From positions 28,582,443 to 28,646,442 of the forward strand of contig CM119265.1 in NCBI GenBank assembly GCA_051294375.1: a stretch of DNA of 64,000 nucleotides, written 5' to 3'. Positions within the stretch are counted from its first letter, which is position 1. Each line of letters starts with the position of its first letter. Below are positions 2,237 to 33,605 of the stretch, piece by piece. A program made the translations under genes and the position numbers. This DNA is from Paraspadella gotoi (lineage: Eukaryota > Animalia > Chaetognatha). The notes below the pieces were generated by a model. It ran no database searches. It was not told the DNA's origin and worked only from the letters and a program-made list of their open reading frames with translations.

Positions 2237-3273
2237 TGTAATAAAAAAGTAGGTGACGACCTTTGTTATTAGTTTATTTAGTAATTGATATTGCAGGGAT
2301 AGCTTAGGCAAAGCAAGGATTGGCTTTGAGCAAAAGCAAAGGTTGGTCTTAAGAAAAGCTTAAGAAGCAAAAAATTGGTTATAAGTGAAGCAGAGATTGC
2401 CTTTGAGCAAAGAGGGAAATGGCTAAAAACAAAGGGCAGTTAGGAGAAGGCTAAAGCCAAAAGGGGGGCTTTTACGGCCTGCTAAGTCCCAAACCAATTC
2501 CAGAGGAGAAATCACGTGACCAAAATCTGCCTATATAAGGAGGAGTGCCACAGACTGTGGTCAGGAGTCAATTGAGACCCTCTGAAGTGTAAGGGGAAAT
2601 TCTGTCCGGCTGGAAAAGTTACTGGAAAAACGCTTAAGTCCAGGAGAGACTGAAAACGCCTAAGTCCAGGAGAGACTGAAAACGCCTAAGTCCAGGAGAG
2701 ACTGAAAACGCCTAAGTCAGGAGAGACTGAAAACGCCTAAGTCCAGGAAGGACTGGTTGGAAATAATAACTCTAAGGTTAAGTCTGATAAGACTTGGTTA
2801 AGGTTAAGTCTGGTAAGACTTGGTTAAGGTTAAGTCTGGTAAGACTTGGTTAAGGTTAATGGTAGATTAATATAAGGGTCTCAAGTGACTACAGACCACA
2901 GCTTCATAATTCCTAGTGGACTCTCCTCAACTCTCAAGTGGATTTCATTAATACTTTGGCTTACATTTAATTTGAACATGTGTATTTAATTTTGTATATG
3001 TACATTGATTTTACTGTGCTTTAAAAATAATGTATTGAGTCAGTAGTAAAGATATTATTTAAATTTGTACTAAAGATTATTTCTTTATTTTTCTTTTAGG
3101 TTAAATTTTTAATAAAAGCGCCCCAGGTTACAAATCCAGTGGACTCAGGATTTAAATAATAAAGTTTTTAACGCCAGGAACTCCAGTGCCCAAGAACTCA
3201 AGGACTCCAGTTTTTCGATATTTTATAATAAAGTGGGTGGTGGTAAAAAACACCACCCAAGATTTTTATTACA
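2237..3273 (+). repeat. 5' LTR
   Basis: TGTAATAAAAA...TTTTTATTACA 11-bp terminal inverted repeat; TATATAAGG ~2532; 26-bp tandem arrays at ~2625-2750 and ~2773-2860; AATAAA ~3111; GGGTGGTG/CACCACCC hairpin 3235-3258; near-identical to 14038-15043. Confidence 0.95.
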
Positions 3274-3275
3274 TC

Positions 3276-3321
3276 TGGCGCCAACATGTGGGGCTCGAAC
3301 CCACGACCCCGGGATTAAGAG
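3276..3321 (+). promoter_or_regulatory. Extended primer-binding site complementary to tRNA-Lys(CUU)
   Basis: TGGCGCCAACATGTGGGGCTCGAACCCACGACCCCGGGATTAAGAG, starting 2 nt after the LTR, is close to the reverse complement of animal tRNA-Lys(CUU) from the CCA end to the anticodon loop. Confidence 0.9.
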
Positions 3322-3589
3322 AGATTAAAAATAAGGGGAGCAACTAATAACGGTAAGGTATTCGTAACAGGAGGGAAGCGAAGGTACGGCGCAACTCTCA
3401 GCCAACGATCTTCTGACGGGTGAAATCAAGATTAGTCCTGAGAACCTACCAGGAAGGTGCCTGGGAGGAGACGGAGGTACAGATACTAAGGGAAAAGCGA
3501 CAATCGCCGAGGAAGTAGACTCGTTAATAATATGTACGCAAGAGGCGATTCCTGGGAGTTGCGACAGGGGTGCTGAAGAAATCCAAGGA

Positions 3590-4093
3590 ATGGACGAAAT
3601 GCCACAAGAAACGTCGCAGAAATGCGAAACCTTGGAGCAGGAATTGGTCTTTCTAACCGAGCTGCCGCCACAGAAGCAGAGACGGCTGAACACACTGGTA
3701 CGAACGTATAAGGTCTCGGCTTCCACGGGATCCACGCCGACCAAACCAGGGTCTGTTGCAATAAAGTATGGGGCGTCGGAGTCGGAACCTGAAGAATTAG
3801 ACACGGCTCCAAAAAGGTTTGCTTGTCACGAATGTGCTGATGAATTTACGAATAAAAGTGCATTGAACGGGCACCGAAGGTGTCACACTTACGACTGTCC
3901 TGAGTGTAATGAAAGAGTGAAAGGGAGATTTTTATTTGAGCTACACAACGAAGTGAAACATAAAAATTTATATGAGTGCTTGGTATGTGAGGAGACGTTC
4001 ACGGAAAAGGGGAGAATAATTGAACATCTCCTACTCCACGAGGTTTTTAAGGAGGAAGCTAGAAAAATAACGTCAAATATAAGGATACTGTAA
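3590..4093 (+). CDS. Element ORF1: three C2H2 zinc fingers (frame open from 3368)
   Basis: CHECADEFTNKSALNGHRRCH, CPECNERVKGRFLFELHNEVKH, CLVCEETFTEKGRIIEHLLLH. Confidence 0.85.
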   Translation: MDEMPQETSQKCETLEQELVFLTELPPQKQRRLNTLVRTYKVSASTGSTPTKPGSVAIKYGASESEPEELDTAPKRFACHECADEFTNKSALNGHRRCHTYDCPECNERVKGRFLFELHNEVKHKNLYECLVCEETFTEKGRIIEHLLLHEVFKEEARKITSNIRIL

Positions 4094-4662
4094 TGTAGTG
4101 AAAATTGGGGTAGGGAAAAGCCTATCACGCCTCGCTTCGTAAAAGAGATTTTTGGTCGGATTTAAATACACTCAAAATAGAGTTTTTATTTTGTCAATTT
4201 TAAATTATGTCCGAGTATAGAGGGGACGAGTGGTTTGATAAATTGTAAAAGGAGAAAACCCTGTACAAAAAGGGTGGCGTAATTTTCATTTGTTTTTCGT
4301 TCTCATGATAACGTTTATTTAAATTGCCGTTTATCTTAACGCCATAATCATGGCACTTATTTTCACCACACTCGTGGAATCATCTTTTACTAATGCCACA
4401 CTCGTGGTAATATTAATTTTAATTTTCTCATTACGCCATTGATCTGTAACGTTGATTTTAAAAGTGGTTTTGTTTTGATCGTCTCCCGCTTGGGAAAAAT
4501 ATTGTTTATTTACTCGGCTACGGCGCCTGATTTTCGTCCGATAGTCAACATTTTTTTTTCTACTTTTGGATATCTCGCATTTTTTATAGCGTTTCCACTA
4601 ATTGCCTTTTTATAAATTGTCGTGAACCCTCTCGTTGACAGATTAATTACTAAAACGGAGCA

Positions 4663-5241
4663 ATGAACCGCTCAAAAAGCCAAGTTTTCCGTGTAAACCC
4701 TAATACACGGGAACAAGCAACTCAAGCAGACGTAGAGTTGCTAAAATTTAATAACGTTGCATGTAAAACCGGAATAAACAATAATGGATCGACGGAAGAT
4801 GACGGACGGGGCGAGACGGATGTTTCGCCAGGCTCAATGAGTTACTCGGAAACAAGACCTCAGGAGGTGACGAGTGAAGAAGATGATGCATACAGTGAAG
4901 AAAGTGGAACGCGATCGGATGGGAGTAGGACTAGTAAAAGTAAGAAAAGGGAGTTTAAGAAACTAGGAAGAGACTGTTGGGACGAACATTGGGAAAAACG
5001 CACTGTAATGAACAAACGTGATTGTTTTAAATGTAGTATTTGTAATAAAACACTGTCTGCTAGAATCCACTTGGATATCCACAACGAGACTGTGCACTCT
5101 GTAGTTTATCGGTGTTTAATTTGTAAAAAATATATAAAGAAAAAGGATAAAATTGTAGTACATGTGTTAATGCATAAGGAAATGGAAATTTTTGCAAAAG
5201 ACGTTTTTTGTTGCATAGAAACTAAAGAGAGGAATAAGTAG
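4663..5241 (+). CDS. Element ORF2: acidic disordered N-terminus plus two C2H2 zinc fingers
   Basis: CSICNKTLSARIHLDIHNETVH and CLICKKYIKKKDKIVVHVLMH; AG acceptor at 4640-4641 upstream of the ATG. Confidence 0.85.
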   Translation: MNRSKSQVFRVNPNTREQATQADVELLKFNNVACKTGINNNGSTEDDGRGETDVSPGSMSYSETRPQEVTSEEDDAYSEESGTRSDGSRTSKSKKREFKKLGRDCWDEHWEKRTVMNKRDCFKCSICNKTLSARIHLDIHNETVHSVVYRCLICKKYIKKKDKIVVHVLMHKEMEIFAKDVFCCIETKERNK

Positions 5242-5370
5242 AATTTTACGTAAGGGTCATGAAAGTTCTGTAAAATAATATCAGCTGCTAAAATTCTCAA
5301 AAATCTTAAAATAATTTAATGTTTTTTCTTTATCACACAGATAAAACTCGAATTAATTAAGTTTACTAAA

Positions 5371-6297
5371 ATGGAATCTAATGAACTGAAAAATTGTTTT
5401 AGCGAATTAAGGGAGTGGGAAATGAAAAATAAGTTATCTGTAAACCAATTAACTGAAGGCCAGCGCAGGCTTGAAATGCAGATAGAGTATGAAAGAAAGG
5501 ATAAGGAAAAGGCTATCCAAAGGTTACGCGATGAGGAAATTAAAAATAGGGACTTACGAAAATTAGTCGCTGAACTTGGTCAAGGGATTCAATTTAAGAG
5601 TAGGGAAAAAGAGGGATTCATGAACGTAAGATTGAAAAAAGATATTGGGTTGAGAGAGACACAATGGGTAGAGACGGAAACGTTGACATATATCTTAAAA
5701 ACGAAAGGGGTTTTGAATGAGGTAGTAAGGGAGATGCAAGAATTTGAACGGAAACCATGGGAAACTAACAAGGAAGCGTGTATACCTACTAAAGTAATAA
5801 GATCAGAATCCCTAATGAAAGTATTCTTTGAGCAAGTTGATTTGACCATATTTACTAAAGAAAGGGAAAGGTTGGATAACGAGTGGAAAAAATTATGCTT
5901 AAAAAGTAAGGAAGTTGAAATATTACGGGAAAAAGTGTATGAGAACCGGGAAGTCATACAAAATTTCTATGAGAAGGAAATAATTGGTATTGTAAAGGAG
6001 AAGATGGACCAGGTTAAGAAAATATATAGCAACGTATGGAATAACCAAAATACTGAAGAAGGCAAGAACTTGATTGATAATAAAAGAATTAACTTTGAAG
6101 AGGACGAGATTCAAGTTTACGTCTCCCCAGAAGAAATCGTGGAAATGGAAGGGAATAATGTAAGTGAAAATGTACATTATGAAAAACAAAATGAGGTAGT
6201 CAATGAAAATATCAAGAATAGTATGGTAGAGAATAGGGGAACAAAAAGAGATGGAGACGGGAATCCAAAAGGAGTGATAAGTAATATAGACAAAGGT
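5371..6297 (+). CDS. Element ORF3, N-terminal part: coiled-coil protein, possibly Gag-like
   Basis: E/K/R-rich helical ORF running into the N gap at ...GVISNIDKG; the same sequence resumes at ~10745. Confidence 0.7.
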
Positions 6298-6322
6298 NNN
6301 NNNNNNNNNNNNNNNNNNNNNN

Positions 6323-9300
6323 TTCCGTTCTTCATGATAACGTTTATTAAAAAGCCGTTTAATGCTTAACGCCATTAATCATGGCACTTATTTTCACCGA
6401 CACTCGTTGTAATTCATCCTTTTACTAATGCCACACTCGTGGTAATATTTAATTTTAATTTTCTCATTTTACGCCATTGATTCTGTAAACGTTTGATTTT
6501 AAAATTGGCTTTTGGTTTTTGATCAAGAATATAACATCTACGGCTTGGGAAATAAATATATTGTTTTTATCTTACCTCTCGGCTATCGGCGCCTGATTTT
6601 TCGTTCGATAGTCAACATTTTTTTCTACTTTTGGACCTATCTCGCATATTTTTCCCTATAGCTCTCCTTTCCACTTTAATTTCTGCCTTATTTTATAAAA
6701 TATTGCTCTCTGTGAATCTCCCTACTCGTTGACAGACAATTTATACTCTATAATAAACGGCCAGCAATTGAACCCGCTGCAAAAATGCACATTCTAAGTG
6801 ATATATATACGTGTAAACCCTAATTACACGTGCGATAAACAAGCAACTCAAGCCCTCAGACGTTAAGTTGCTAATATAATAACGTTGTGCAATATGGGTG
6901 TTAAAACCGAAGAATTAAACAATAATGGAATTCGTGGAAGGATGACGACGGGAGCGAGGACGGATGTTTTCGCCAGGCTTTTCACATGATGTTACTCTGG
7001 AACAAAGACCTCAGGAGGGTTGAACGATGTGAGAACAAATGATGTCCACTTGCATTCCTACAGTGAGATAGTTGAGAAACGCGAATTTCGGATGGGACGT
7101 GTCAGGACTAGATAAAAGTAAGATAAGGTGTAGATTATTTTAAGAACACTTATATAGGAAGTAGACTGTTTGGGTCACGAAATGGGGAAAAAACGTCCTA
7201 CATGTTTACCATGAACAATTAAACGTTGTTATAACCTGTCCACGTATTTAGTAATAAAATCATCTGTCTGAAACTCTAAGAATTCCACTTGGCATGAGTC
7301 TCACACCCACGAGTATGTGCAACAAAATCCCTCGTCCACCGTCTTCATCGTGGAATCTAATTTGTATAAAAACATATATTATAAAAAGAAAAATGTCGTA
7401 ATAATATTATAGTACATGTGTTAATAGCCAATTAAGGAAATGGATAATTTTTGCAAAGAACGATTTTTGTCTGCATAGATACTAAGGAGAGGACCTATAA
7501 GATAAGAATTTCCTACTCCGTAAGGGGTTTCATGAATATGTTCTGTAAAATAATATCAGTCTTGCTAAAATTCTTTCAATAAATCTTAAATAATAATTTA
7601 GTTTTCTCATTTATACACAAGATTTAAAAACTTCGACTATTTAATTAAGTTTTACTAAAAATGGAATCTATTATGGCAACCTGCACCAAAAATTATTGTA
7701 TTTAAGCGAATTAATGCGGCATGTTGGAGATGAATTATATTATGAGTTATATTGTTAATACCCCAACTTAACTGAAAGGCTAGTGCTGCAGGCTTGAAAA
7801 ATATCTTGTGCAAAGATAAAGAGTATGAATAAGAAAGGTATTAGCGAATGGCTATATCCAAATGGTACGCTGTATGACTGTTGAAATAAATAAGGACTTT
7901 TACGTAATAAAATAGTCGCTGAACTTGGTCAAGGGCATTCTCAATTTATAGTGGAGTAGGGTGAAAATAAGATGGGATTTCATGATACTTGTATTTGTGA
8001 ATAAATATATTTGGGTTTTGAGAAGACACTAATTGGTTAGATGACGGTAAACTGTTGACATATATCTTATAAACGTAAAGGAGGAATGTGGACAGACTCT
8101 ACGATACATTAGGGTGTTAAACGTTTATTAACGATGCAATACAATGACATAAAAAGGTGAAATAAAAAGGTAATGCAATTACACAGTGGAAATGAGACAA
8201 AATCGATGTTTACTTAGTGAATGAAAGGTTTAGAAAGGCATTGAACGTTGTGTCTATTCTTCGTGGGCTAACGCGTGGCCATCGACCGGAAGGAAACCCC
8301 GTTGAAAGCCAGCGGGACGACGAGACCAATGACCTGAGGTTCTAAGAGGTCATGGTGGTCGTTGAGGGAAAAGATGAGAGAGATAGTCGAGGTAGCTCGG
8401 CCTTCATCCCCCCCATCAAGTTCGTTGTCTCCGGAAAGAGGGCGCGGAACTGATAACTACAGCTTCTTGCCGTGGTCCATGAATTGCATAAAGGGGAATT
8501 GGTTGCTTTTGCGCACAAAAGAGGTCGCTGTTTGTATGTCACATAAAGTTTGTCAAGTCCTAAATCCAATGAGGCCGTAGGAAATATAACGGAATATATA
8601 ATTTAGAGCGTGTGATAGCTCATCTGCGGTTTTTGGCGTCGTGTCTGTGGCGCTCTGCCACGGCGTTTTTTGCCGTCTTCCACGCATTGCTGTTTTTAAG
8701 TAGCTCTAGTTGTAGCAGAGGCTTGTTCATATTCTGCAGCCTTTTTTTCTGTGGACGTGTGGCCGACAATTCCGAGGTTATTTCCTCAGGGAACTTCGTA
8801 GTTGGCGTCAAAGAAAAGGCTGTCATCAATTATCGCCAGAGTCACTGGGCAACAGAGGTGGATGAAAGGCGACGATATTAATGATGGGAGACCTTTGTTT
8901 GTTTTTGTTGATTTTGTCGTAAGATAAAGGTGAAAGAAATAGAAAAAGAGTGATAAGTAATAAAAGTGGGTAAAGGAACGGAACATTTTTGAGAAAATAT
9001 ATTAAAATAGTAGGAAATTAACAAGTAGGTAGAATAAAAAGTAAGAAAAAAAATAAAAAATGGAGCAAATTTATATATTTGAATTGTTTAGAAAAAAGCG
9101 TTAAGGTTTTTTGTTTCATTGTAGGAATTATGTTTGCAGCATTGAAGGAGCAATTCAAGGCATTGAAGGAGTTTGCTTCTTTAGAGCATTCAGATAAAAA
9201 CGTCAGATTCGGTTTACTGCCAGAATCACGAGCAGAGGCTGATGCCACGAGCTTTTGGATACGCAAATTGACGAAGGTGTCGGCGATAGTTTTGGTAGAG

Positions 9301-10780
9301 ATAAGTTTTTTCTCGGCGTCTTCTTGCTTTGCTCGTCAACGGCCGTCGTTAGTAAACGTCGGGAAAAAGAAAACGATGAGGGCGACTCAACCAGTGTTGG
9401 AGTTTTTTGGCAGAGAGATTTGTCAGAGAGGGTTTTGGTAATGTTAGGTGGAGGATTTATATTATTCTCCAGAGTAGATGGTGACCCGCCGACACCGGAG
9501 ATAAGGGACTTAAATTGGAGGTGTGAAAAAGGAGTCTTTTTTGGAGGGGACATGGAAACGAGACAGGCGAATCGCCCTTGTGAATGCAAGGCTGATTGGG
9601 TGAATCCTTGCTTTCACAAAGAATTGTATTTTTTACTAAAAGCGGAAGATTCAAAACAAGTTCCAATTCATCCATTTTTTCTTGTTCACGTTGGGAGGTA
9701 GGATACTTAGTTGGGAGGTTGGTTGGCAATATTGTAAACATTTTCAGAGGTTTTTTTTTTTTTTATGGGCGGGGAAGGTTTTTAGGAGGCTTTTTTTTTT
9801 TATATAGTATTTTTCACAGAAGGCTTTTTGGGCGTGTTCTCCGTCGGGCTCACCAATGTGGGAGACACGACAATAGGGTGTAAACAGTTTATTACGAGGC
9901 AATTACAATGACATAAAAAGGTGAATAAATAATGAATTACACAGTGGAGAGACAAAACGATGTTACAGGATAAAGGTGTTAATTAGTTGTGTCTCTCGTG
10001 CTTCGCGCCGACCGAGAAGACCCGTTGAAGCCCACGAACAATGACCTGAGGTCTGAGGTCATGTGGTCGTTGAGCGGAAAAGAGAGGAGAGTCGATAGTA
10101 GCTCAGGTCCTCAGGGTTTGAATATAGTATCAGGTAGTAAGGAGATGCAATGAATTGAACATAATCGTAATGGGAAAGAATAAAGCAATTAAGAGAGCGG
10201 ATCGTATTAATTACTAAACTAATAAAAAGTAATAGAATCAGATATGCCTCCCTAATGAAATGTATTCTTTGAGCAAGTTGATTTGACCATATTTTACTTA
10301 AAGAAGGGAAAGGTGGTTGGTATAACGAGTGGAAAAATATATGCTTAAAAAGTAAGGAGAAGTGAAATATTACGAAAAGTGTATGAGAACCGGGAAGTCA
10401 TACAAAATTTCTATGAGAAGGAAATAATTGGGTATTTGATAGGAGAAGATGGACCAGGTTAAGAAAAATAATTAGCAACGTATGGAATAACCAAAATTAC
10501 TGAAGAATGGCAAGAACTTGATTGATAATAAAAGAATTAACTTTGAAGGACGAGATTCAAAGTTTACGTCTCCCAGAAGAAATCGTGGAAATGGAAGGGA
10601 ATAATGTAAGTGAAAATGTACATTATGGAAAAAACAAAATGAGGTAGTCAATGAAAAATATCAAGAATAGTATGGTTAGAGAATAGGGGAACAAAAAAAG
10701 AGATTGGAGACGCGGGAAATCCATAAAGGCAGTCCGAATAAAGTGGGAATCCAAAAGGAGTGATAAGTAATATAGACAAA
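6323..10780 (+). other. Error-rich duplicate of ~4330-6297 (unpolished read or alternate allele) carrying a nested insertion
   Basis: Colinear with 4330-6297 but full of single-base indels; begins right after an N gap. Confidence 0.85.
8087..10113 (-). mobile_element. Small nested LTR element (TRIM/non-autonomous-like) with tRNA-Trp-like PBS
   Basis: Direct repeats 8087-8406 and 9857-10113 with TG..CA ends; on the minus strand TGGTGAGCCCGACGGAG follows the 5' LTR and GGGGGGGA precedes the 3' LTR; it interrupts the ORF3 copy at AAGGGG. Confidence 0.75.
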
Positions 10781-10927
10781 GGTCTCGATCCCGGATGTAA
10801 GATATTATGCTGTGGAATTAGGAGGTGTGGGAAATGCTTCCACAGTCACGGGGACCAAGTTGATTGCCCATGCCTGCATACAAGGCAATTTATTGATTTC
10901 GTGGAAGGTGGAGAGCTATTTGATTAA
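10745..10927 (+). CDS. Element ORF3, C-terminus: Cys/His-rich, zinc-knuckle-like
   Basis: GNPKGVISNIDKGLDPGCKILCCGIRRCGKCFHSHGDQVDCPCLHTRQFIDFVEGGELFD*, continuing the ORF cut at 6297. Confidence 0.7.
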   Translation, partial: GNPKGVISNIDKGLDPGCKILCCGIRRCGKCFHSHGDQVDCPCLHTRQFIDFVEGGELFD

Positions 10928-11083
10928 CTATAAATAATAGGACTCGGTGAACAAGTTGTGCGATAACGCTGTGTTAATAATTGTGTTGACAAGTGTTAAT
11001 TGGAATTGAACAGTGTTTTATTCTTGAAGTGTATTGATAATTCTTGCCTTTCATGTTATGTTCTTTCTTCTTTCAGTAACGAA

Positions 11084-12675
11084 ATGGAACTGAAATTAAG
11101 TGACAGTGTGGTAAACTTATTTGAGACAAACATCCCAAAAAAGAATGACCTCTTGCACGCACAAAGCAAGACAAGGGAATTCAACTCCTAAAGCAAGCCA
11201 TTCTGGATGGCAATAAACCGGACTTCAAAGACAAAGTCATTAAAGGATTTAAATCCGTCTTCCGGTCACTGGAGCTCGATGACGGAATATTGGTGAGAAA
11301 GACTCCTGGCGGGAATACAGCAATCGTGGTCCCAGAAAGTAAGGTAAATGAAATCCTTTATCATACTCATGGTAGTCCGTTGTCAGCACATTATGGGATA
11401 AGTAAATCATATTATAAGTTGGTGAAACATTTTTATTTTCCAAAGATGGTTGTTAAATTATCTGACTTTATAAATACCTGCCCGTTGTGTGTACGTAGAA
11501 AAAGTCCCAAAAATAAGCCAATGGCGGAGATTCAGCCTATTAGCGTAGACAGCTACGATATTGGGGGATGTATATCTTATGATTTTAAAGGCCCTTTGCC
11601 AGTTAGTGACAAATCTATATTGTATCAATGTAAAAATCGATTCGTACTAGTAATTATTGATCACGCATCAAGGTTTGTATTGGCTCATCCGACGCCCACC
11701 ATGGAAGCGTCGGTTGTGGCGGAAGTCATTATTTCGTCTTGGATACCGAGATTTGGAGTGCCAAGAGCCATTATCTCAGATCGGGCTAAAACGTTCACGG
11801 GTAAAATTCTTAGAACTATATATGAAAGCCTCCAAATAGATATTTGCTTAACAGCGTCGTACAATCCGGCCGCTAATGGATTAATAGAACAAGTGAATAG
11901 AAATATTTCTAATATTTTAACGGTCATGTTGGATGGCTTTATGGCCGACTGGCCAAAGCAATTAAATTTATTATTTAGCGCGTATAACTCGAGCCCCAAT
12001 ATATCAACCGGGGTATCGCCAAACTACATAGTATATGGGAGAAACTTAATTGAACCTATTGATCTTATTTTAACCAGGAGGGAAACTATTGGCTGGAAGG
12101 AGAGAAAAATTTTGGACGAATTGGAGGAACGGTTACGAGCAAGAAGAAAAGTAATGGAGATATTGAACCTAAGGTACGAGGAGGGGCAGGAGAAGAGGAG
12201 GGAGAAATCTAAAGTTAAAGCCAATGTCCCAACTTATGTAGTTGGGGAATTAGTGGGCTTTGAGCCACCGTTGCAACCGGGGAAACTTTTAAAGTCCTAT
12301 GAGATTAATCATACAGTGATAAAAGTACTATCTCCAACAACGTATGTAATAAAAAACAATGAAACGGGTTTTGAAAGGGTTGTTAATGCAAGAAAACTAA
12401 AAAAGGCGGTAACAAGAAAACTTAAACCAGTAGAATGTCAAAATGGGGGAATAATAATTGAGGAACAATCTGATTTCTCAGATGCGTCGTCCGGATCCGA
12501 GGGAGAAGGCACTAACACGTGGGTGCAACAAACACGAACAAACGGAGAAAGCGTAATTGATGGACGAGCCGAACCTGTAAAAATAAGTACGCAAAAAGAA
12601 GAGGATATGAATATGTGGGATAAACGTTTGAGAGACAGGAAACTTTTGAATAAACCGAAAAGATTTGAATTATAA
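11084..12675 (+). CDS. Gypsy-type DDE integrase as a separate ORF (one probable 1-bp indel near 11168)
   Basis: HHCC (HTHGSPLSAHYG...CPLC), catalytic YDFKGP / ISDRAKTF / NGLIEQVNR, degenerate GPY/F region, basic C-tail RDRKLLNKPKRFE; acceptor TTCTTTCTTCTTTCAG ending 11076, ATG 11084. Confidence 0.92.
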
Positions 12676-12810
12676 TGACGAAAATGTTTTACTGAATAAA
12701 TAAAGTTAGATTATGGTCTTAAGTTTTGTCGGGGGGGGGGGAATGTAGAACATAAAATGTCCTACATTTGTTCTTTATTCTAGGTACGATAAATACTGAA
12801 ATAAATAAAT

Positions 12811-13914
12811 ATGTACGCGTTAACCAATGTCGGAATATACGTCAAACTCCTAAGTTATGGTAGAGACGATGAGGCGTTTGAATTAGCATTGAAAAAAGTA
12901 ATCAAAGGATCATTGCATATGGCAATTGAGTATGGTAGGGAGAGGGTTACGAGGAAGTTACTTGAGGAAGGAATTGATCCAAATGAAGTGAGGAACCATG
13001 ACGGACTTACGCCATTGCATATTGCAGTAATGAAGAAAAACGTGAATATCGTGGAACAGCTAATGGTGCGAGGAGCAGACGTGATGAAATGTGATTATTC
13101 AGGGAATAATTGCCAGGCTAAACTACTAAGAAAACGGTATGATTCAAAGTCTAAAATAGTAATGGAGCTCATTAAAAATAAGATGTCTGAACAGGACTTT
13201 AAGATAAAGAATACTCATGGGGAGACATTATTACACATAGTGGCTTCTAACCCAGAAATAGTAGATATACGGTTGTATGAGATGCTGTTAACAATGGGAG
13301 TGCCAACAGATGTACAGAATGAATACTCGGGACGCACATTCCTTATGGACTTATGTAATAATAATCTGGATGATGAATTTATAATAGAGGCTATAGAATT
13401 CGCTAGAAACAAAGGGATAGATATCAATCAAGAGGACAAGAACCAGAATACTTTACTACAGTATGCTATTACTAAGGGAAATAGGAAAGTAACAAAGACA
13501 TTGCTTGACATCCCGGATACCAAAGTAATAACTAAAAATGTGATGGATGTAACTCCGATGTGGAATGCAGCATTTAAGGGCGACTTAAGGATGGTTAAGG
13601 ACATTTACAGAGCAGGTGGAAATCTGGAAGATACTGCATATGTTAATGCAGCAACTACCAAGCCCATACCAACATGGCAGGCAGCTCGCAGGTCTCGTCA
13701 CGAGTTTGTAGCAAGAAAGATTATTGAATTCATGACAGGAGTAGAGGAAGGACAGAACATTACCAGGGAAGTTAAGAGTTTAAAACATCTAACTAAACTA
13801 ATTATTCGGAATGAGTTGGTTAGGAGTAACCAGGGAAGAGTATTAATTGACCAGTACGAAGGGCTTAAACTACCCAAGACCCTTGAACAGTACTTAAAGG
13901 AAATACAGTACTGA
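12811..13914 (+). CDS. Ankyrin-repeat plus C-terminal SOCS-box protein (ASB-like) inside the LTR element
   Basis: About 7 ankyrin repeats (GLTPLHIAVMKKNVNIVEQLMVRGADV, GETLLHIVA, NTLLQYAITKGN, TPMWNAAFKGD); BC-box VKSLKHLTKLIIR and cullin box LKLPKTLEQYL; intronless and intact. Confidence 0.9.
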   Translation: MYALTNVGIYVKLLSYGRDDEAFELALKKVIKGSLHMAIEYGRERVTRKLLEEGIDPNEVRNHDGLTPLHIAVMKKNVNIVEQLMVRGADVMKCDYSGNNCQAKLLRKRYDSKSKIVMELIKNKMSEQDFKIKNTHGETLLHIVASNPEIVDIRLYEMLLTMGVPTDVQNEYSGRTFLMDLCNNNLDDEFIIEAIEFARNKGIDINQEDKNQNTLLQYAITKGNRKVTKTLLDIPDTKVITKNVMDVTPMWNAAFKGDLRMVKDIYRAGGNLEDTAYVNAATTKPIPTWQAARRSRHEFVARKIIEFMTGVEEGQNITREVKSLKHLTKLIIRNELVRSNQGRVLIDQYEGLKLPKTLEQYLKEIQY

Positions 13915-14037
13915 AACTTCATTGTCTATTTGAGATTGCCTGAAGCACGGAGGAAACTACCTGGTTAAGGGAATTTTATGGTGCTTGAAAGCATGAAACT
14001 GCATGAGGACATGCAGAAGTTTTGTCCGGGACAGGGA

Positions 14038-15043
14038 TGTAAATAAAAAAGTAGGTGACGACCTTTTTTATTAGTTTATTTAGTAATTGATATTGCAGGG
14101 ATAGGCTTTAGGCAAAGCAAGGATTGGCTTTGAGCAAAAGCAAAGTTTGTCTTAAGAAAAGCTTAAGAAGCAAAAAATTGTTATAAGTGAAGCAGAGATT
14201 GCCTTTGAGCAAAGAGGAAATGGCTAAAAACAACAGGGCAGTTAGGAGAAGGCTAAAGCAAAGGGGGGCTTTTACGGGCCTGCTAAGTCCCAAACCAATT
14301 CCAGAGGGAGAAATCACGTGACCAAAATCTGCCTATATAAGGAGGAGTGCCACAGACTGTGGGTCAGGAGTCAATTGAGACCCTCTGAAGTGTAAGGGGA
14401 AATTCTGTCCGGCTGAAAAGTTACTGGAAAAACGCTTAAGTCAGAGAAACTGAAAACCTAAGTCCAGGAGAGACTGAAAACGCCTAAGTCCAGGAGAGAC
14501 TGAAAACGCCTAAGTCCAGGAGAGACTGAAAACGCCTAAGTCCAGAAGGACTGGTTGGAAATAATAACTCTAAGGTTAAGTCTGATAAGACTTGGTTAAG
14601 GTTAAGTCTGGTAAGACTTGGTTAAGGTTAATGGTAGATTAATATAAGGGTCTCAAGTGACTACAGACCACAGCTTCATACCTAGTGGACTCTCCTTCAA
14701 CTCTCAAGTGGATTTCATTAATACTTTGCTTACATTTTAATTTGAACATGTGTATTTAATTTTGTAATGTACATTGATTTTACTGTGCTTTAAAAAATAT
14801 GTATTGAGTCAGTAGTAAAGATATTATTAAAATTTGTACTAAAATTATTTTCTTTATTTTTCTTCCAGGTTAAATTTTTAATAAAAGCGCCCCAGGTTAC
14901 AAACTCCATGGACTTCAGGATTTAAATAATAAAGTTTTTAACGCCAGGAACTCCAGTGCCCAAGAACTCAAGGACTCCAGTTTTTCGTATTTTATAACTA
15001 AAAGTGAGTGGTGGTAAAAAACACCACCCAAGATTTTATTACA
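14038..15043 (+). repeat. 3' LTR
   Basis: Direct repeat of 2237-3273, preceded by GGGACAGGGA, followed by TSD AGCAG; one fewer AAGGTTAAGTCTGGTAAGACTTGGTT unit. Confidence 0.95.
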
Positions 15044-15448
15044 AGCAGATTCCGGCTTGACTATTCATTTTGTCGGTTCTGTCAGAACATCGAATTATGA
15101 AAAATTTGGCAAAAAAACCGATGTCCGTCTGTCTGTCTGTCTGACTGTCTGTTTGTCTGTTCTTCCATCCTACCTTAGCTTTAATCGCTGATTACTCTTG
15201 AGTGGATGAGGCTTTTAACTTAAAAATTTGTGTGAAGGTAAATAAGTATGTGATTGAGTTGTAAATCAAGCAAAAACAGCTCCCGCTCCCAACTGTACCA
15301 GTGTTATGATGTAAATATTTTCAATTTGTTATAAACAAATATAAACGTCAGGGAGTTTTCTAACTATTGATAAGATCAAATATCAATAATAGTCAGTCAG
15401 TTAAGAGTTATAACAACTCTTTTCATTTTATTCCATTTTTAGAGAGAT

Positions 15449-18007: not shown

Positions 18008-19229
18008 ATGAAGATCACGGAATTTCGAATTTTGCTTCCGATGGAACTGGAAGAATATCGGGTCGGGCAACTTTATTCCATCTTGGAGAGCGCTAAGGTT
18101 AAAGTCACTGTTTTGGATTATAAACATATGTAGTATTATGTAGTATTACGATTTTTTTTATAGATCAGAACTTGAAGGTTTTTTTTTTTTAAGTTTTTTT
18201 TATAACTGTGTGATGTTTAATTTTTAACGTGTTTTTTACGGATTCAGAAAATGCTCAAAAAGTCAATTATTATTATTATTAAATATTATGTTTTAGTTAT
18301 AAAAATCTAACGAAATCTACATACTAATTCTGCAAATGATGATGATGATGATAATGGATTTTAAATTTTTGACTCATTATTAAAGTTTAAAAAGGTTTAA
18401 TAATCTTTTTTAGCTTTTTTAGCTTCATCAAAATCCATTCTTAAAAACTATAATTTACTGAAAAATATTAAATATTTTTTTTAAAAGGCTCAATTCCTTT
18501 TTTTTACGATCCAAAAACCATAAAAAATTTTTTTTTCAAAAGTTACAGAGGAAATCGTTTTTTGTAGTAAGGCAAAATAATAATTGATCTCTGTTATAAA
18601 AATACAAAATTCTGAGACACCTTAATGTCAATCCCTATTAGAAAGAAACGGGAGGCGGGGAAGGATGGGAAATCGTGGCCAACGAACCCATAGACAAAAA
18701 ATTACCAGAAGATTTGTTCAAATTCGCGGGCGACCGAGTTCCCCACAGGGGCCAATATACCCATAAAATAGCCCACGTGGCGTCGAAGGCCCCAAGGTGG
18801 GTCAGGATTTTGGCCCCGCGAGGTTCATTGGAGTTTAAAGAGGAAGCTTGGAACTATTATCCTTACACGAGGTGAGAATAATTAAATTTAATTTAATTAA
18901 ATTTATTAATTTTTTTTTAGACATCGTTATTTCCTTTCGTTTCGTTGTGTTTGGCATGATAGAAAACGTTTTTTAGATTGATCAAACAACGATTTTTATT
19001 AATATGAGACGGACATGTTTCGCTTTAGTTTCTACAAGCCTTCATTGCGTCAGAGATAATTATTGAAACTTTCAAAAAAGATTTGTGCAAAAGAAATGAG
19101 AGAGAGAGAGAGAGAGAGGGCAAAGTTTCCAACACAGAGTTGAGAGAAGAATAGTGGTCAGATGTGAGGACAGGTTAAGGTAAGGACAGAATGAGCCAGA
19201 TGTGAAAGAAAACTTAATGGTGAAAATTT

Positions 19230-19260
<31 letters not shown>

Positions 19261-22200
19261 ACATTTGAAAATAATACATTTTTTGTAATGTACAACAAAG
19301 ATAAATTTTAGACTAAAGGTGAAATAAATATTTTAACAATTAACTACTAATAAAAATTGAAAATGAAAAGTGAAATTTGAGAGATTTGTGAAATAAGGGA
19401 GACCTTTGCACAGGCAATGGGCAAACGATGCCTCTCCTTCAACTGCAGCAACTCATTCCCTTTCTCTGTGAAGTGAGCGTCCACCCAAAAGGCGCTGCAG
19501 GAGGAAGGGGAGGAGTCCACAACTCATGTCGCCAAAGCGGCAAGAACGGACAACCACCCATCTTGCCAGCAGGCGAGAAGAGGGCGAGTCGACAGGCGTA
19601 CCAGGCCAGAGAGACATTAGAGTAGCCTTGGACTCTTCCCACAAGGAAGCCTTCCCAGTCCAACACACATAGCTCAACCAATATGACCTCTCAGCCATTG
19701 ACACGTCAATGACTCGACCACATCGTCAAGACCCTTCATTTGCTTCAACCAAAGGGGGCCAGCTCACTTTGAGCTCTTTCTTAATCCTTGAATTTCACTT
19801 TATTTCATAATAATACTTATTTCACAATCTCTCAAATTTCACTTTTTCATTTTCAATTTTCACATCTTATTTATTTTAGTAGTTAATTGTTTAAAATATT
19901 TATTTCACCTTTAGTCTAAAATTTATCTTTGTTGTACATTACAAAAAATGTATTATTTTCAAATGTTCTCTCTCTCTCTCTCTCTCAAATTTTCACCATT
20001 AGTTTCTTTTCACAATCTGGCTCATTCTGTCCTTACCTTAACCTGTCCTCACATCTGACCACTATTCTTCTCTCAACTCTGTGTTGGAAACTTTGCCCTC
20101 TCTCTCTCTCATTTCCTTTGCACAAATCTTTTTTGAAAGTCATAATTATCTCTGACGCTGATGAAGGCTTGTAGAAACTAAAGCCGAACATGTCCGTCTC
20201 ATAGCTAATAAAAATCGTTGCTTGCATCAATTCTAAAAACGTTTTCTATAATTTTTTTTAAAATTATGTTTCTTATTCACTTGCAAAAAATAGCGTTTAA
20301 TGAATGTATATATAGTTTATACACTGTTTTAATGTTTCACTGTTTCAATTAATCAATTAATCTTTAAATATTTGAATTTTATAAATTTCTCACTATGATA
20401 AAAGACGTTTTAAATTGTTCAAACAAGGATTTTATTAGTGTAAGACGGACATGTTTCGGCTTTAATTGTACAAGCCTTCATTGGCGTCAAAGATGTTTGT
20501 GAAATTTCAAACAAAGTTTATGCAAAGGAAAAGAGAGAGAGAGAGAGAAAGAGAGAGAGGGCAAAGTTTCCAACACAGAGTTGAGAGAAGAATAGTGGTC
20601 AGATGTGAGGACAGGTTAAAGTGAGGACAGAATGAGCTAGATTGTGAAAAGAAACTAAATGGTGAAAAATTGACAGAGAGAGAGAGATAGAGAGAACATT
20701 TGAAAGATAATACATTTTTTGTAATGTACAACAAAGATAAATTGTTGAAACTAAAGGTCAAATAAATATTTTAACAATTAACTATTAATAAATAACAGTG
20801 TGAAAAATGGAAAAGTGAAAAGTGAAATTTGATAGTTTTGTGAAATAAGTATTATTATGAAATAAAGTGAAAGTTCAAGGATTAAGAAAGAGCTCAAAGT
20901 GAGCTGGCCCCCTTTGGTTGAAGCAAATGAAGGGTCTTAACGATGTGGTCGAGTCATTGACGTGTCAATGGCTGAGAGGTCATGTTGGTTTAGACTGTGT
21001 GTGTTGGACTGGGATGGCTTCCTTGCGGGAAGAGTCCAAGGGCTACCCTAATGTCTCTCTGGCCTGGTACGCCTGTCGACTGCCCTCTTCTCGCCTGCTG
21101 GCGAGATGGGTGGTTGTCTGTTCTTGCCGCTTTGGCGACATGAGTTGTGGACTCCTCCCCTTCCTCCTGCAGCCGTCTTTTGGGTGGACTCACTTTGAGC
21201 TCTTTCTTAATCCTTGAACTTTCACTTTATTTCATATTAATACTTATTTCACAAAACTCTCAAATTTCACTTTTCACTTTTCAATTTTTCACACTCTGTT
21301 ATTTATTAATAGTTAATTGTTAAAATATTTATTTCACCTTTAGTTTCAACAATTTATCTTTGTTGTACATTACAAAAAATGTATTATCTTTCAAATGTTC
21401 TCTCTATCTCTCTCTCTCTCTCTCAATTTTTCACCATTTAGTTTCTTTTCACAATCGAGCTCATTCTGTCCTCACTTTAACCTGTCCTCACATCTGACCA
21501 CTATTCTTCTCTCAACTCTGTGTTGGAAACTTTGCCCTCTCTCTCTTTCTCTCTCTCTCTCTCTTTTCCTTTGCACAAACTTTGTTTGAAATTTCACAAA
21601 CATCTTTGACGCCGATGAAGGCTTGTACAATTAAAGCCGAAACATTTCCGTCTTACACTAATAAAATCGTTGTTTGAACAATTTAAAACGTCTTTTATCA
21701 TCCAAACACAACGAAACAAAAGGAAATAACGATGTCTAACAAATTTCTCACTGAATCCTATTGTCTCTATATCATCTTTATCTCAATCTCATCTCAATCT
21801 CATCTCAATCGCATCTCATCTCATCTCAATCTCATCTCAATCTCACCTCAATTTCATATCAATCTCATCTCAATCTCATTCTAATCTCATCTTAATCTCT
21901 TCTAAATCTCAATTTCCTCTAAATCTCAATCTCATTTTCAATCTCAATCTCATCTAAATCTCATCTTAATCTCATCTAAATCTCATCTTAATCTCATTTC
22001 ATCTAATATTAATCTCATCTTAATTTCATCTTAATCCCATCTTAATCCTATCCTAATCCCAAGGACGGTTATCACGAATCCGGAATACATGAAGGACAAG
22101 TTTTCTGTGGATACAAAGTCAGTCTTTGTTGGCGACGACGAAGGAAAACAAGAGAACATCTTTGGTCTGTCGGAAGAGGAACTGGGGAAAAGAGAGGTGA

Positions 22201-31200: not shown

Positions 31201-33605
31201 ACCAGAACATGGTTTTCGCTCCGCCTGTTGCAATTTTTTATTAAGCTGCCAATGACTTGTGAATGTGGATATCAGCTGGGTCTCTATAGAATAGAAGAAA
31301 TACTTGGCAGATTAATTCACGTTGCTTCTGAGATCTTTGTTCCCCCGCTGATGCTTTTTTTTGTATTTTTCCTTTTTTTTTTTTCTTCTTCTTTTTTGTT
31401 TTATGGTGAGTCAACCATTTAGTGGATTTTTGAACGGGATGAAGATAGATTTTTGCAACCATACTCCCTGCGCGCAATGTGATTTGGTTTTGGCTCTCTT
31501 ATCTTCTTCACCACACAACACCAAAATATTCAGTTTGGCTATGATTAACAATGATGTGATAATGAATAGAGTACATCTATGAACTTCAGTATTACTTATA
31601 AGGGTTTGGAGAGTGATTATGACTAATTATGTAATATATACAATACGTACAAATTATCTGCGCAAAAGACTTGACAGCTGGACGAAGATAAACCCGACGA
31701 CGAGTGTTCAAGCGACTCGACTGCACGATGCCGAGGGACGATGGCAGGGTGGGGAGAAGGAGGAGAGTGGGTTCATTGTTAAATCTGTGGAGCTGACGAC
31801 GAACAAACGAGCGACGAGCGCGATCGACGACGCACGAAAAACAATTTCCTCACTTTGATCGTGATGCCGGCGAATTCGAATCCGTGATCCAGGCATCGAT
31901 AGCACTGTTCGGCGTTTCAGTGGTTGGTTCGGGTGATTTCACGTTGATTGTTAGTGAGGTGAGTGGATTATCTATTGTTTAATATAGCAGAAAAAGTCGT
32001 TTGTTATTGAAAATCCAGTGACGAAAACGTAAGTATAGGTATGGGAGCATATTTCGAGACTAAGCGTGTTGATCCAAGGTGGACGGTACTGTTAATTGAG
32101 TGTCGGTCTGGTTTAGTAGTTCTCGTAAAAGTCTTATTTTAATAGAGTTAGGTTAAAAGTATTGATGTGAAAAGTTTGTACATTCCTCAGTGCTAGGCGC
32201 GCATGTATTCGTCAAGGTTAGCGAACGGATAGAAGTAAGAACTTCGTTTTGCAAATGAAGCGGTTCCGCGAGCTGAGGAGATTTGTCTCTCTAGCTGCAC
32301 GGTGCCAAAATGAACACAAGTCGCAACAAATTAATATTGAAATAAAAAAAGACAAAACGTGGACAATTAAAAAGTAAATTAAAGGGGTGTAATAAAAGAT
32401 AAGATGGATTTTTTCGTTCAAGACAAACATACAATTTCTTCGATAGGAAATTTGCGATGGTGCGGAAACGTATTTTGGTTTTTCTTGAGAAATTTTAATT
32501 GGAATCGATCTGAAACTGGAGAATTATGTCTTCGTGTGCATTGACGAAGGAGAATTGGGTATCGTAATACATTTAATATATTAAGCATAGTAAATTGAAG
32601 ACCATTTTGGATTTTATCATTGGCGGTTACGGCTACATTAGGCGAAGAAAGTAAGGGGGTTGTTGGGTTCGTGGTTGTAGATAAGGGATGGGAAAATGGA
32701 GTATTTCTTATCTTAGTATGGTCTTTAACGTTTGGGTAACCTGATATAAGATCATGAATAAATTATTTCGAGAGTCTGTCCTCCGCTGTAAGTTTAATGA
32801 GAGTTTTATGTTAGTGTGCAATAAGTGATAGAGTTGGAGCACATACATCGAGCGGGCACAACAAGAGTGAATAAGAAATAAACGTTGAGCAAGATTGGAG
32901 GGATGACGGCTAAGTGAGGACGGGGATAAGTAGCAACTACTCGAGCGCGTGACGGATAAAGAATAACGTAGAAGCTACAGTAGAGAGTATTATATTTCTT
33001 GGGCTATAGAGAGTTTCTAAATAGGAAACATCGGTAAGAAAAGGACTGTGTATTTTTCGTTCGTCAGAGGGTGTAACAACGTTTGTCAGTGGGAGATCGG
33101 TTCATAGCTAATTTTGAACATTTATAAATGTCAGGTGTATCCACCACATTGCTCTAGAGGTTATGATGCTTTGACCCATCGCATGGCTCTAGCCAAAGAT
33201 CGTTACGAATTCCATTATTGTATGGCTTAATTTATTGGTACAGGATAATTATCTTTCTAACGAAAGTCTCCTGTGTAAGACTTCAGCAGCGCANNNNNNN
33301 NNNNNNNNNNNNNNNNNNTGAGAGAGCCAGGCAGCGAGAGCAGAGTGAGAAGAGAGAGCAGAGCGCAAAGAGAGAGAAGGGGGGAAAGAGATAAAGATGA
33401 GAGAAGAGAGGGACGGAGCGAGAGAGAGATACGAGAGAGATATAGAGAGAGAGACGGATGAAGGAGGAGAAGGAGGGAGGGGGAGAGAGAGAGAAAAGGG
33501 GAGAGAGAGAGAGAGAAAAGAGGAGAGAGAGAAAGAAAAGAGAAGAGAGAGAAGAAAAAAAGGAGGAAAGAGTGAGAGAAAATAGGAAGAGAGAGAGAGA
33601 TAGAT

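Follow-up and report, generated by a model that had tools for sequence, protein, structure and literature searches.

In retroelements with long terminal repeats (LTRs), the integrase enters the particle as part of Pol, and LTR families devoid of reverse transcriptase (RT) are, to our knowledge, known to keep either gag or nothing. Here we describe an LTR element of the chaetognath Paraspadella gotoi which combines a free-standing integrase gene with four others and has no RT. It is assembled at 2237-15043 on the forward strand of a stretch of 64,000 nt (assembly GCA_051294375.1, contig CM119265.1, positions 28,582,443 to 28,646,442), which is referred to as the window; all coordinates given below are window positions.

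With Ty3/Gypsy elements (Metaviridae, e.g., yeast Ty3) the element shares TG...CA LTRs, a 5-bp target-site duplication (TSD), a tRNA-type primer binding site (PBS), a polypurine tract (PPT) and an H2C2-DDE integrase. What characterizes this group is thus present as far as LTR ends, a TSD of 4-6 bp, PBS, PPT and a Gypsy-type integrase with H2C2, DDE and SH3-like parts are concerned; however, no Pol portion of protease, RT and RNase H precedes the integrase, which has its own ATG, and no Gag is recognizable. With its cis signals intact and RT missing, the element appears to behave as a non-autonomous Ty3/Gypsy element, yet it falls outside the group when membership is judged by Pol. Complex retroviruses (foamy viruses, lentiviruses) have small regulatory genes and a second internal PPT in common with it, and their splice donor behind the PBS and their multiple acceptors find a counterpart in donor- and acceptor-like motifs of the present element. 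In contrast to these, it has no gag, RT or env, its integrase is of the Gypsy type, and its splicing is predicted.

Three further systems are comparable. Bhikhari-1 and -2 of zebrafish are described as recently active LTR families without RT, which kept gag and lost pol and whose Gag begins with a coiled coil (PMC12067270). The present element is likewise an RT-less LTR family with a conserved gene, and its ORF3 is predicted to form a coiled coil; unlike Bhikhari, it keeps an integrase and adds zinc-finger and ankyrin/SOCS genes, and no capsid fold was recognized in ORF3. Planarian Burro/GYPSM1 elements are Gypsy elements which likewise have ankyrin repeats and ubiquitin-pathway domains, but they are autonomous giants of over 30 kb with these domains in a single polyprotein (PMC6431247). 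Ginger1 elements encode a lone Gypsy-type integrase of 500-800 aa and have TGT termini, terminal inverted repeats (TIRs) of 40-270 bp and 4-bp CCGG/CCGT TSDs (PMC2836005).

Extent and Gene Content of the Element

Our analysis shows an LTR element of about 8.3 kb, with an integrase and four more genes and without RT, which likely moves through RNA with RT, RNase H and probably a capsid provided in trans. Direct reading of the sequence bore out the paired LTRs, exact AGCAG TSD, PBS and PPT listed in a preliminary description of the window. The 5' LTR (2237-3273, 1037 nt) contains a TATA-like box at 2534 and AATAAA at 3111 and 3158, and the 3' LTR (14038-15043) comprises 1006 nt. Both element ends are flanked by identical copies of AGCAG (2232-2236 and 15044-15048), for which chance agreement over five letters amounts to 1 in 1024.

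Five ORFs on the forward strand encode, in this order, two zinc-finger proteins, a coiled-coil protein, the integrase and an ankyrin/SOCS protein, an arrangement that had been proposed before and is confirmed by reading frames and Pfam (with C2H2 and SOCS box scoring below the cut-offs). The Pfam scan revealed no match to RT, RNase H, protease or Gag in any of the nine frames analyzed. Contigs lead to the same result at the junction between ORF3 and integrase, where a spacer of 156 nt separates the stop of the former from the ATG of the latter. Contigs of four of the nine listed runs were aligned to 10130-14400. Four contigs of X5, which derives from another individual and another study, form a chain over 10322-14109 with overlaps of 30 nt; a 2989-nt contig of X1, possibly the source of the assembly, is identical to 11029-14017; and contigs of X4 cover every bin of the region. 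In none of these three runs do the contigs contain gag-pol in the spacer, so that the ordinary gag-pol at 10927-11084, which the preliminary description had named as the finding that would turn this copy into a deletion or misassembly, did not appear. The absence of RT is demonstrated for the present subfamily only.

The span of 2237-15043 cannot be taken as the length of the element, since 4.5 kb of it, overlooked in the preliminary description, is an assembly artefact: 6298-10783 consists of 25 N (6298-6322) and a raw long-read fill which repeats 4295-6297. The fill duplicates 4295-5708 at 72% and 5717-6272 at 85%, and the first of these blocks differs by 367 inserted, 22 deleted and 58 substituted letters. 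An error profile dominated by insertions is that of a single raw long read. Contigs of three runs cross the second block with 16-23 gaps and omit 43 nt at 10702-10744. Without the fill, the element measures 8321 nt instead of 12.8 kb, its internal region 6278 nt, and ORF3 is made up of 309 codons before and 47 codons after the gap.

Within the gap-fill read lies a nested LTR element of 2 kb on the reverse strand (8085-10113, repeats 8085-8406 and 9855-10113) with its own PBS, a G-rich PPT and unrecognized ORF fragments. In X1, X4 and X5 alike, contigs start about 139 nt before 10262, a place that maps near the insertion point of the nested element (5682-5712), which would be compatible with a coexistence of filled and empty sites. 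Further runs of N occur at 33294-33318 and 61465-61760; since the former again comprises 25 letters, other parts of the assembly may hold raw-read fills as well.

Cis Signals

The PBS (3276-3293) starts with TGG two letters past the 5' LTR and appears complementary to a tRNA 3' end, putatively that of tRNA-Lys, over more than the usual 18 letters. Scans with ARAGORN and Rfam returned no match for a tRNA or other RNA. Close behind the PBS stands a predicted splice-donor-like GGTAAG (3352-3357). The 3' PPT (14028-14037) is located directly ahead of the 3' LTR, and a second, PPT-like tract lies 3' of the integrase gene (12721-12752), reading AAGTTTTGTC followed by a G run and AATGT. Its lead-in of ten letters equals that of the 3' PPT, and TGT comes next. 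In a sister subfamily (see below), 12723-12752 of this tract is retained, where the flanking DNA does not align.

The LTRs begin with TG and end with CA, and the outer ends of the element form an inverted repeat of 10 nt. Apart from 9 substitutions, the two LTRs are separated by 32 indels, almost all of them 1 nt long. At six of the eight listed indel places of the 3' LTR the contigs agree with the 5' LTR; thus, much of the difference is assembly error, and the pair is closer than assembled. The LTR harbors two arrays of 26-nt units (2609-2755 and about 2780-2860), which recur in the 3' LTR with one unit less. The second array carries donor-like GGTAAG sites upstream of an acceptor-like site ending at 3099, and hence the LTR itself may hold an intron. 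In X5, X4 and X1 the LTR reaches about one to three times the depth summed over the integrase, a ratio which does not give copy numbers and is not relied on here.

TGT termini around a lone integrase invite a comparison with DNA transposons. The integrase could act as a Ginger-like transposase on TGT...ACA ends, with LTR, PBS and PPT as relics. Ginger1 encodes just such a lone enzyme akin to Gypsy integrases and likewise starts with TGT (PMC2836005), and the inverted outer ends of our element would fit. Nevertheless, we regard movement as DNA as very improbable. The inverted ends span 10 nt and not the 40-270 bp of a Ginger1 TIR, the TSD is the 5-bp AGCAG and not a 4-bp CCGG/CCGT, and the element has direct repeats of 1 kb, a PBS and two PPT-like tracts, whereas Ginger1 has no LTR, PBS or PPT. 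Moreover, the internal tract is retained in the sister subfamily while its surroundings no longer align.

The Integrase and Its Relatives

The integrase gene (11084-12675) encodes an H2C2 motif, a DDE core, an SH3-like part, an acidic tail and a C-terminal basic motif. Pfam matches are H2C2 (PF17921, 5e-13), rve (PF00665, 1e-9) and, weakly, PF22938; among solved structures the best relative is Ty3 Gag-Pol (E 6e-26), followed by the foamy virus integrase. The C-terminal motif, W-x2-RLR-x-R...KP-x-R, follows the acidic tail (12600-12675) and is kept in most full-length relatives; presumably, it can be compared to nucleosome-binding basic motifs.

The start codon at 11084 lies 7 nt past an acceptor-like AG (11076). 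Its frame runs for 35 codons which are akin to the N-termini of relatives and ends at a stop (11189-11191), and the long frame opens at 11149. Contigs of X1, X4 and X5 show 0 gaps at this place, so that the frame break is real and common to the main form of the subfamily. The reading frames had been called essentially intact, which does not hold for the integrase gene, and together with the near-identical LTRs they had been taken to suggest recent activity; with the integrase gene broken, present activity of this copy is not supported. Among the differences listed for the integrase frame, 24 of 25 are synonymous and 23 fall on third positions (41 of 286 difference rows were listed, from alignable parts only), and the break therefore looks recent. 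Programmed -1 frameshifting was considered and rejected: the overlap contains no canonical slippery heptamer, and relatives are continuous there.

In a first protein search, limited to 279-889 aa, 27 proteins were obtained, of which 17 are close relatives with identities of 45-58%. Methionine occupies the start column of the integrase in 13 of these 17: ten begin with it within two positions of the profile start, and three have it in the column after a short extension. The remaining four comprise one extension without methionine, one protein starting 16 positions later and two lacking the N-terminus. RNase H motifs upstream were found in none of the 15 relatives that reach the N-terminus. A profile search without length limit was run against 1.84 billion representatives, and its matches were pooled with the proteins of the first search and sorted by single-domain score. 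This placed 27 short integrase-only proteins at the top (354-869 bits, including the remote P0044 and P0047), and the best protein with RT or RNase H motifs upstream reached 242 bits. Long top matches of 2000-3500 aa turned out to be chimeric gene models whose scores were summed over several domains (about 215 bits for a single domain) and were discarded.

For a quick maximum-likelihood tree, 64 rows were chosen, namely 16 free-standing integrases, the 40 best-scoring RT-fused ones of sufficient length and 8 others; fragments were excluded. All 16 free-standing integrases group on a single branch apart from the 48 others (SH-aLRT 100, stem of 1.07 changes per site), within which P0044 and P0047 diverge first. 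The contigs they originate from belong to ENA, Logan and JGI and measure up to 5.8 kb. No relative was found in the viral contigs and prokaryote genomes scanned. Metagenome contigs contributed five loci, all of them distant (27-29%) and four of them ordinary pol genes; at the locus L004 (1-13983), an unrelated Gypsy-like gag-pol unit with a long C-terminal extension past the integrase forms a head-to-tail array (period 7614 nt). Neither such a group nor an LTR family with integrase alone is described in the literature listings and abstract openings searched; as this search did not extend to Repbase, GyDB and subscription journals, an unpublished library entry may exist.

To judge from these comparisons, the integrase is a member of an old clade of free-standing integrases, and its own start methionine, shared by most close relatives, together with the single long-stemmed clade argues that it is not the stump of a deletion. 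This bears on the least probable of the readings, an ordinary Gypsy element which recently lost gag-pol or was misassembled. The span does contain a 4.5-kb artefact and a broken integrase gene; however, the junction is confirmed in contigs of other individuals, the start is conserved in the relatives, and a close RT-fused relative is missing among the 1.84 billion representatives. We therefore give this explanation hardly any weight.

A Sister Subfamily and the Possibility of Autonomous Kin

Contigs of X1 also reveal a sister subfamily, with an integrase about 80% identical and a contig of 6243 nt, which compares to the internal region of 6278 nt described here. Upstream, 3506 nt are found where the present element has 3580, so that the differences stay within 35 nt in total and 75 nt upstream. 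By its joints, this contig extends into the internal PPT-like tract and two portions of the ankyrin gene. The contigs also include a third integrase variant (about 79%). In size, the sister contig seems to fit the same layout, which we take as support, not as proof.

The same contig can be read differently. There may be autonomous kin, an option the preliminary description did not raise, in which gag-protease-RT-RNase H makes up one gene and the integrase a second, spliced gene; the present subfamily would have swapped the first gene for the zinc-finger and coiled-coil genes and be mobilized by its kin. For the copy at hand the mechanism would be the same, and only the reading of the family would change. 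An integrase clade of such depth needs a steady source of RT, and the upstream 3.5 kb of the sister contig would be about enough for a compact gag-protease-RT-RNase H gene. ORF3 and the ankyrin protein have no close relatives compared to 17 for the integrase, and thus the cargo may differ between families. On the other hand, the sister contig matches the present element so narrowly in size and shares its ankyrin gene, and no RT-only partner protein turned up, although no search was aimed at one. Overall, we consider autonomous kin of this kind rather unlikely.

Accessory Genes

ORF1 (3590-4093, 167 aa, with the frame open from 3368) contains C2H2 zinc fingers, and ORF2 (4663-5241, 192 aa) contains two; an acceptor-like AG ends at 4641 ahead of the latter. 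The two proteins are paralogous (31% over 80 aa, E 7e-10), and their C2H2 matches have E-values of 1e-4 and 1e-3. The first 309 codons of ORF3 (5371-6297, behind an acceptor-like AG ending at 5340) are rich in Glu and Lys and predicted to form a helical coiled coil, and the last 47 (10784-10927) carry a Cys/His cluster including C-x2-C-x3-H-x5-C. ORF3 occupies the usual place of gag, but evidence of a capsid fold did not emerge from a single-sequence model of low confidence (pLDDT 44), and neither a Pfam family nor a database homologue was found (best protein Atlas value 0.87, uninformative).

The fifth gene (12811-13914, 367 aa, acceptor-like AG ending at 12783) encodes ankyrin repeats (Pfam 6e-24) and a C-terminal SOCS-box-like motif (3e-4); it gave generic matches to six proteins only, and its model has a pLDDT of 39. 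Ankyrin repeats combined with a SOCS box constitute the architecture of Elongin-BC/Cullin substrate adaptors. The putative functions of ORF1 to ORF3 and of the ankyrin/SOCS protein are assigned by domain.

Proposed Mode of Movement

Four internal pyrimidine-rich AG sites reach the threshold, three of which precede the start codons of ORF3, integrase and ankyrin gene by 7-30 nt; a weaker acceptor-like site precedes the ATG of ORF2 by 21 nt. The fourth, at 12077, is the landing point of a GT..AG joint in one X9 contig (depth 2.1), which omits 277 nt of the integrase core (11799-12077) and comes from a run guessed to be RNA. This joint is a weak hint at splicing. Donor- and acceptor-like motifs and the second PPT-like tract add to the likeness to a complex retrovirus proposed in the preliminary description, which stands at the level of sequence signals.

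We propose that a full-length RNA starting in the 5' LTR would be packaged and copied from a tRNA primer by the RT and RNase H of another element. Subgenomic RNAs may arise by splicing of the donor behind the PBS, or of one in the LTR, to the acceptors before ORF2, ORF3, integrase and ankyrin/SOCS gene, such that each protein would be made separately. The integrase would recognize the element's own ends and, no longer being part of Pol, has to be produced separately, which may be why the lineage kept it. As the gene is broken here, copies of the present subfamily would also need integrase from sister subfamilies. The ankyrin/SOCS protein likely links a host protein to an Elongin-BC/Cullin ligase and may serve in counter-defence, and the zinc fingers likely regulate transcription. 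The internal PPT-like tract could be a second start of plus-strand synthesis or, alternatively, an old 3' end behind which the ankyrin/SOCS gene was captured.

Several points weigh against movement by RNA with help in trans. The integrase gene is broken in this copy and subfamily. No helper or partner was found in the data examined, i.e., the window and the contigs of four runs, and no genome-wide search was made. The contig evidence consists of the records listed, to which another 115 records and 51 loose ends would have to be added; rare variants are lost in contigs, and among the listed ones none has at least 31 letters on both sides of 11029-11058. The upstream part of the sister contig could just accommodate a compact gag-protease-RT-RNase H gene, which is why its size supports the common layout without proving it. 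The database integrases are known as proteins without DNA context, and an RT could lie elsewhere in their elements; the tree is a quick search without bootstrap and named reference clades. The predicted splicing relies on motifs without shuffle control and on the shallow X9 contig, and the SOCS and C2H2 assignments on matches below Pfam cut-offs.

A bolder version of help in trans would be a segmented lineage, with one LTR segment carrying integrase and regulatory or counter-defence genes and a second one carrying Gag-protease-RT-RNase H but no integrase, so that neither could do without its partner. We deem this about as doubtful as the autonomous kin considered above.

Other Features of the Window

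Long ORFs of the host encode a NACHT NTPase (41724-42842) and a Kelch-repeat protein (45947-47038) on the forward strand, together with an unmatched frame of 335 aa (43607-44611, forward) and an unmatched membrane-like protein of 478 aa (56388-57821, reverse). The NACHT and Kelch genes, along with the repeat landscape, would suit an invertebrate host. At 19100-21700 there is a cluster of inverted repeats which are long and almost perfect (up to 301 nt, 97%), probably nested MITEs or another gap-fill artefact.

Implications

A long-lived lineage with a separate integrase gene would mean that Pol can be split. This raises the questions of how a free integrase enters the particle, where its RT comes from and whether a retroelement genome may consist of segments. 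The ankyrin/SOCS gene would represent a transposon-borne ubiquitin-ligase adaptor, whose target could expose a host restriction factor. Furthermore, a step connecting Gypsy elements with Ginger DNA transposons is missing, and the element is a candidate for it; the Ginger authors call this chain of events unclear (PMC2836005). If the lineage were indeed segmented, the depth of the clade of free-standing integrases would testify to an ancient retro-transcribing genome of animals that is divided into two parts.

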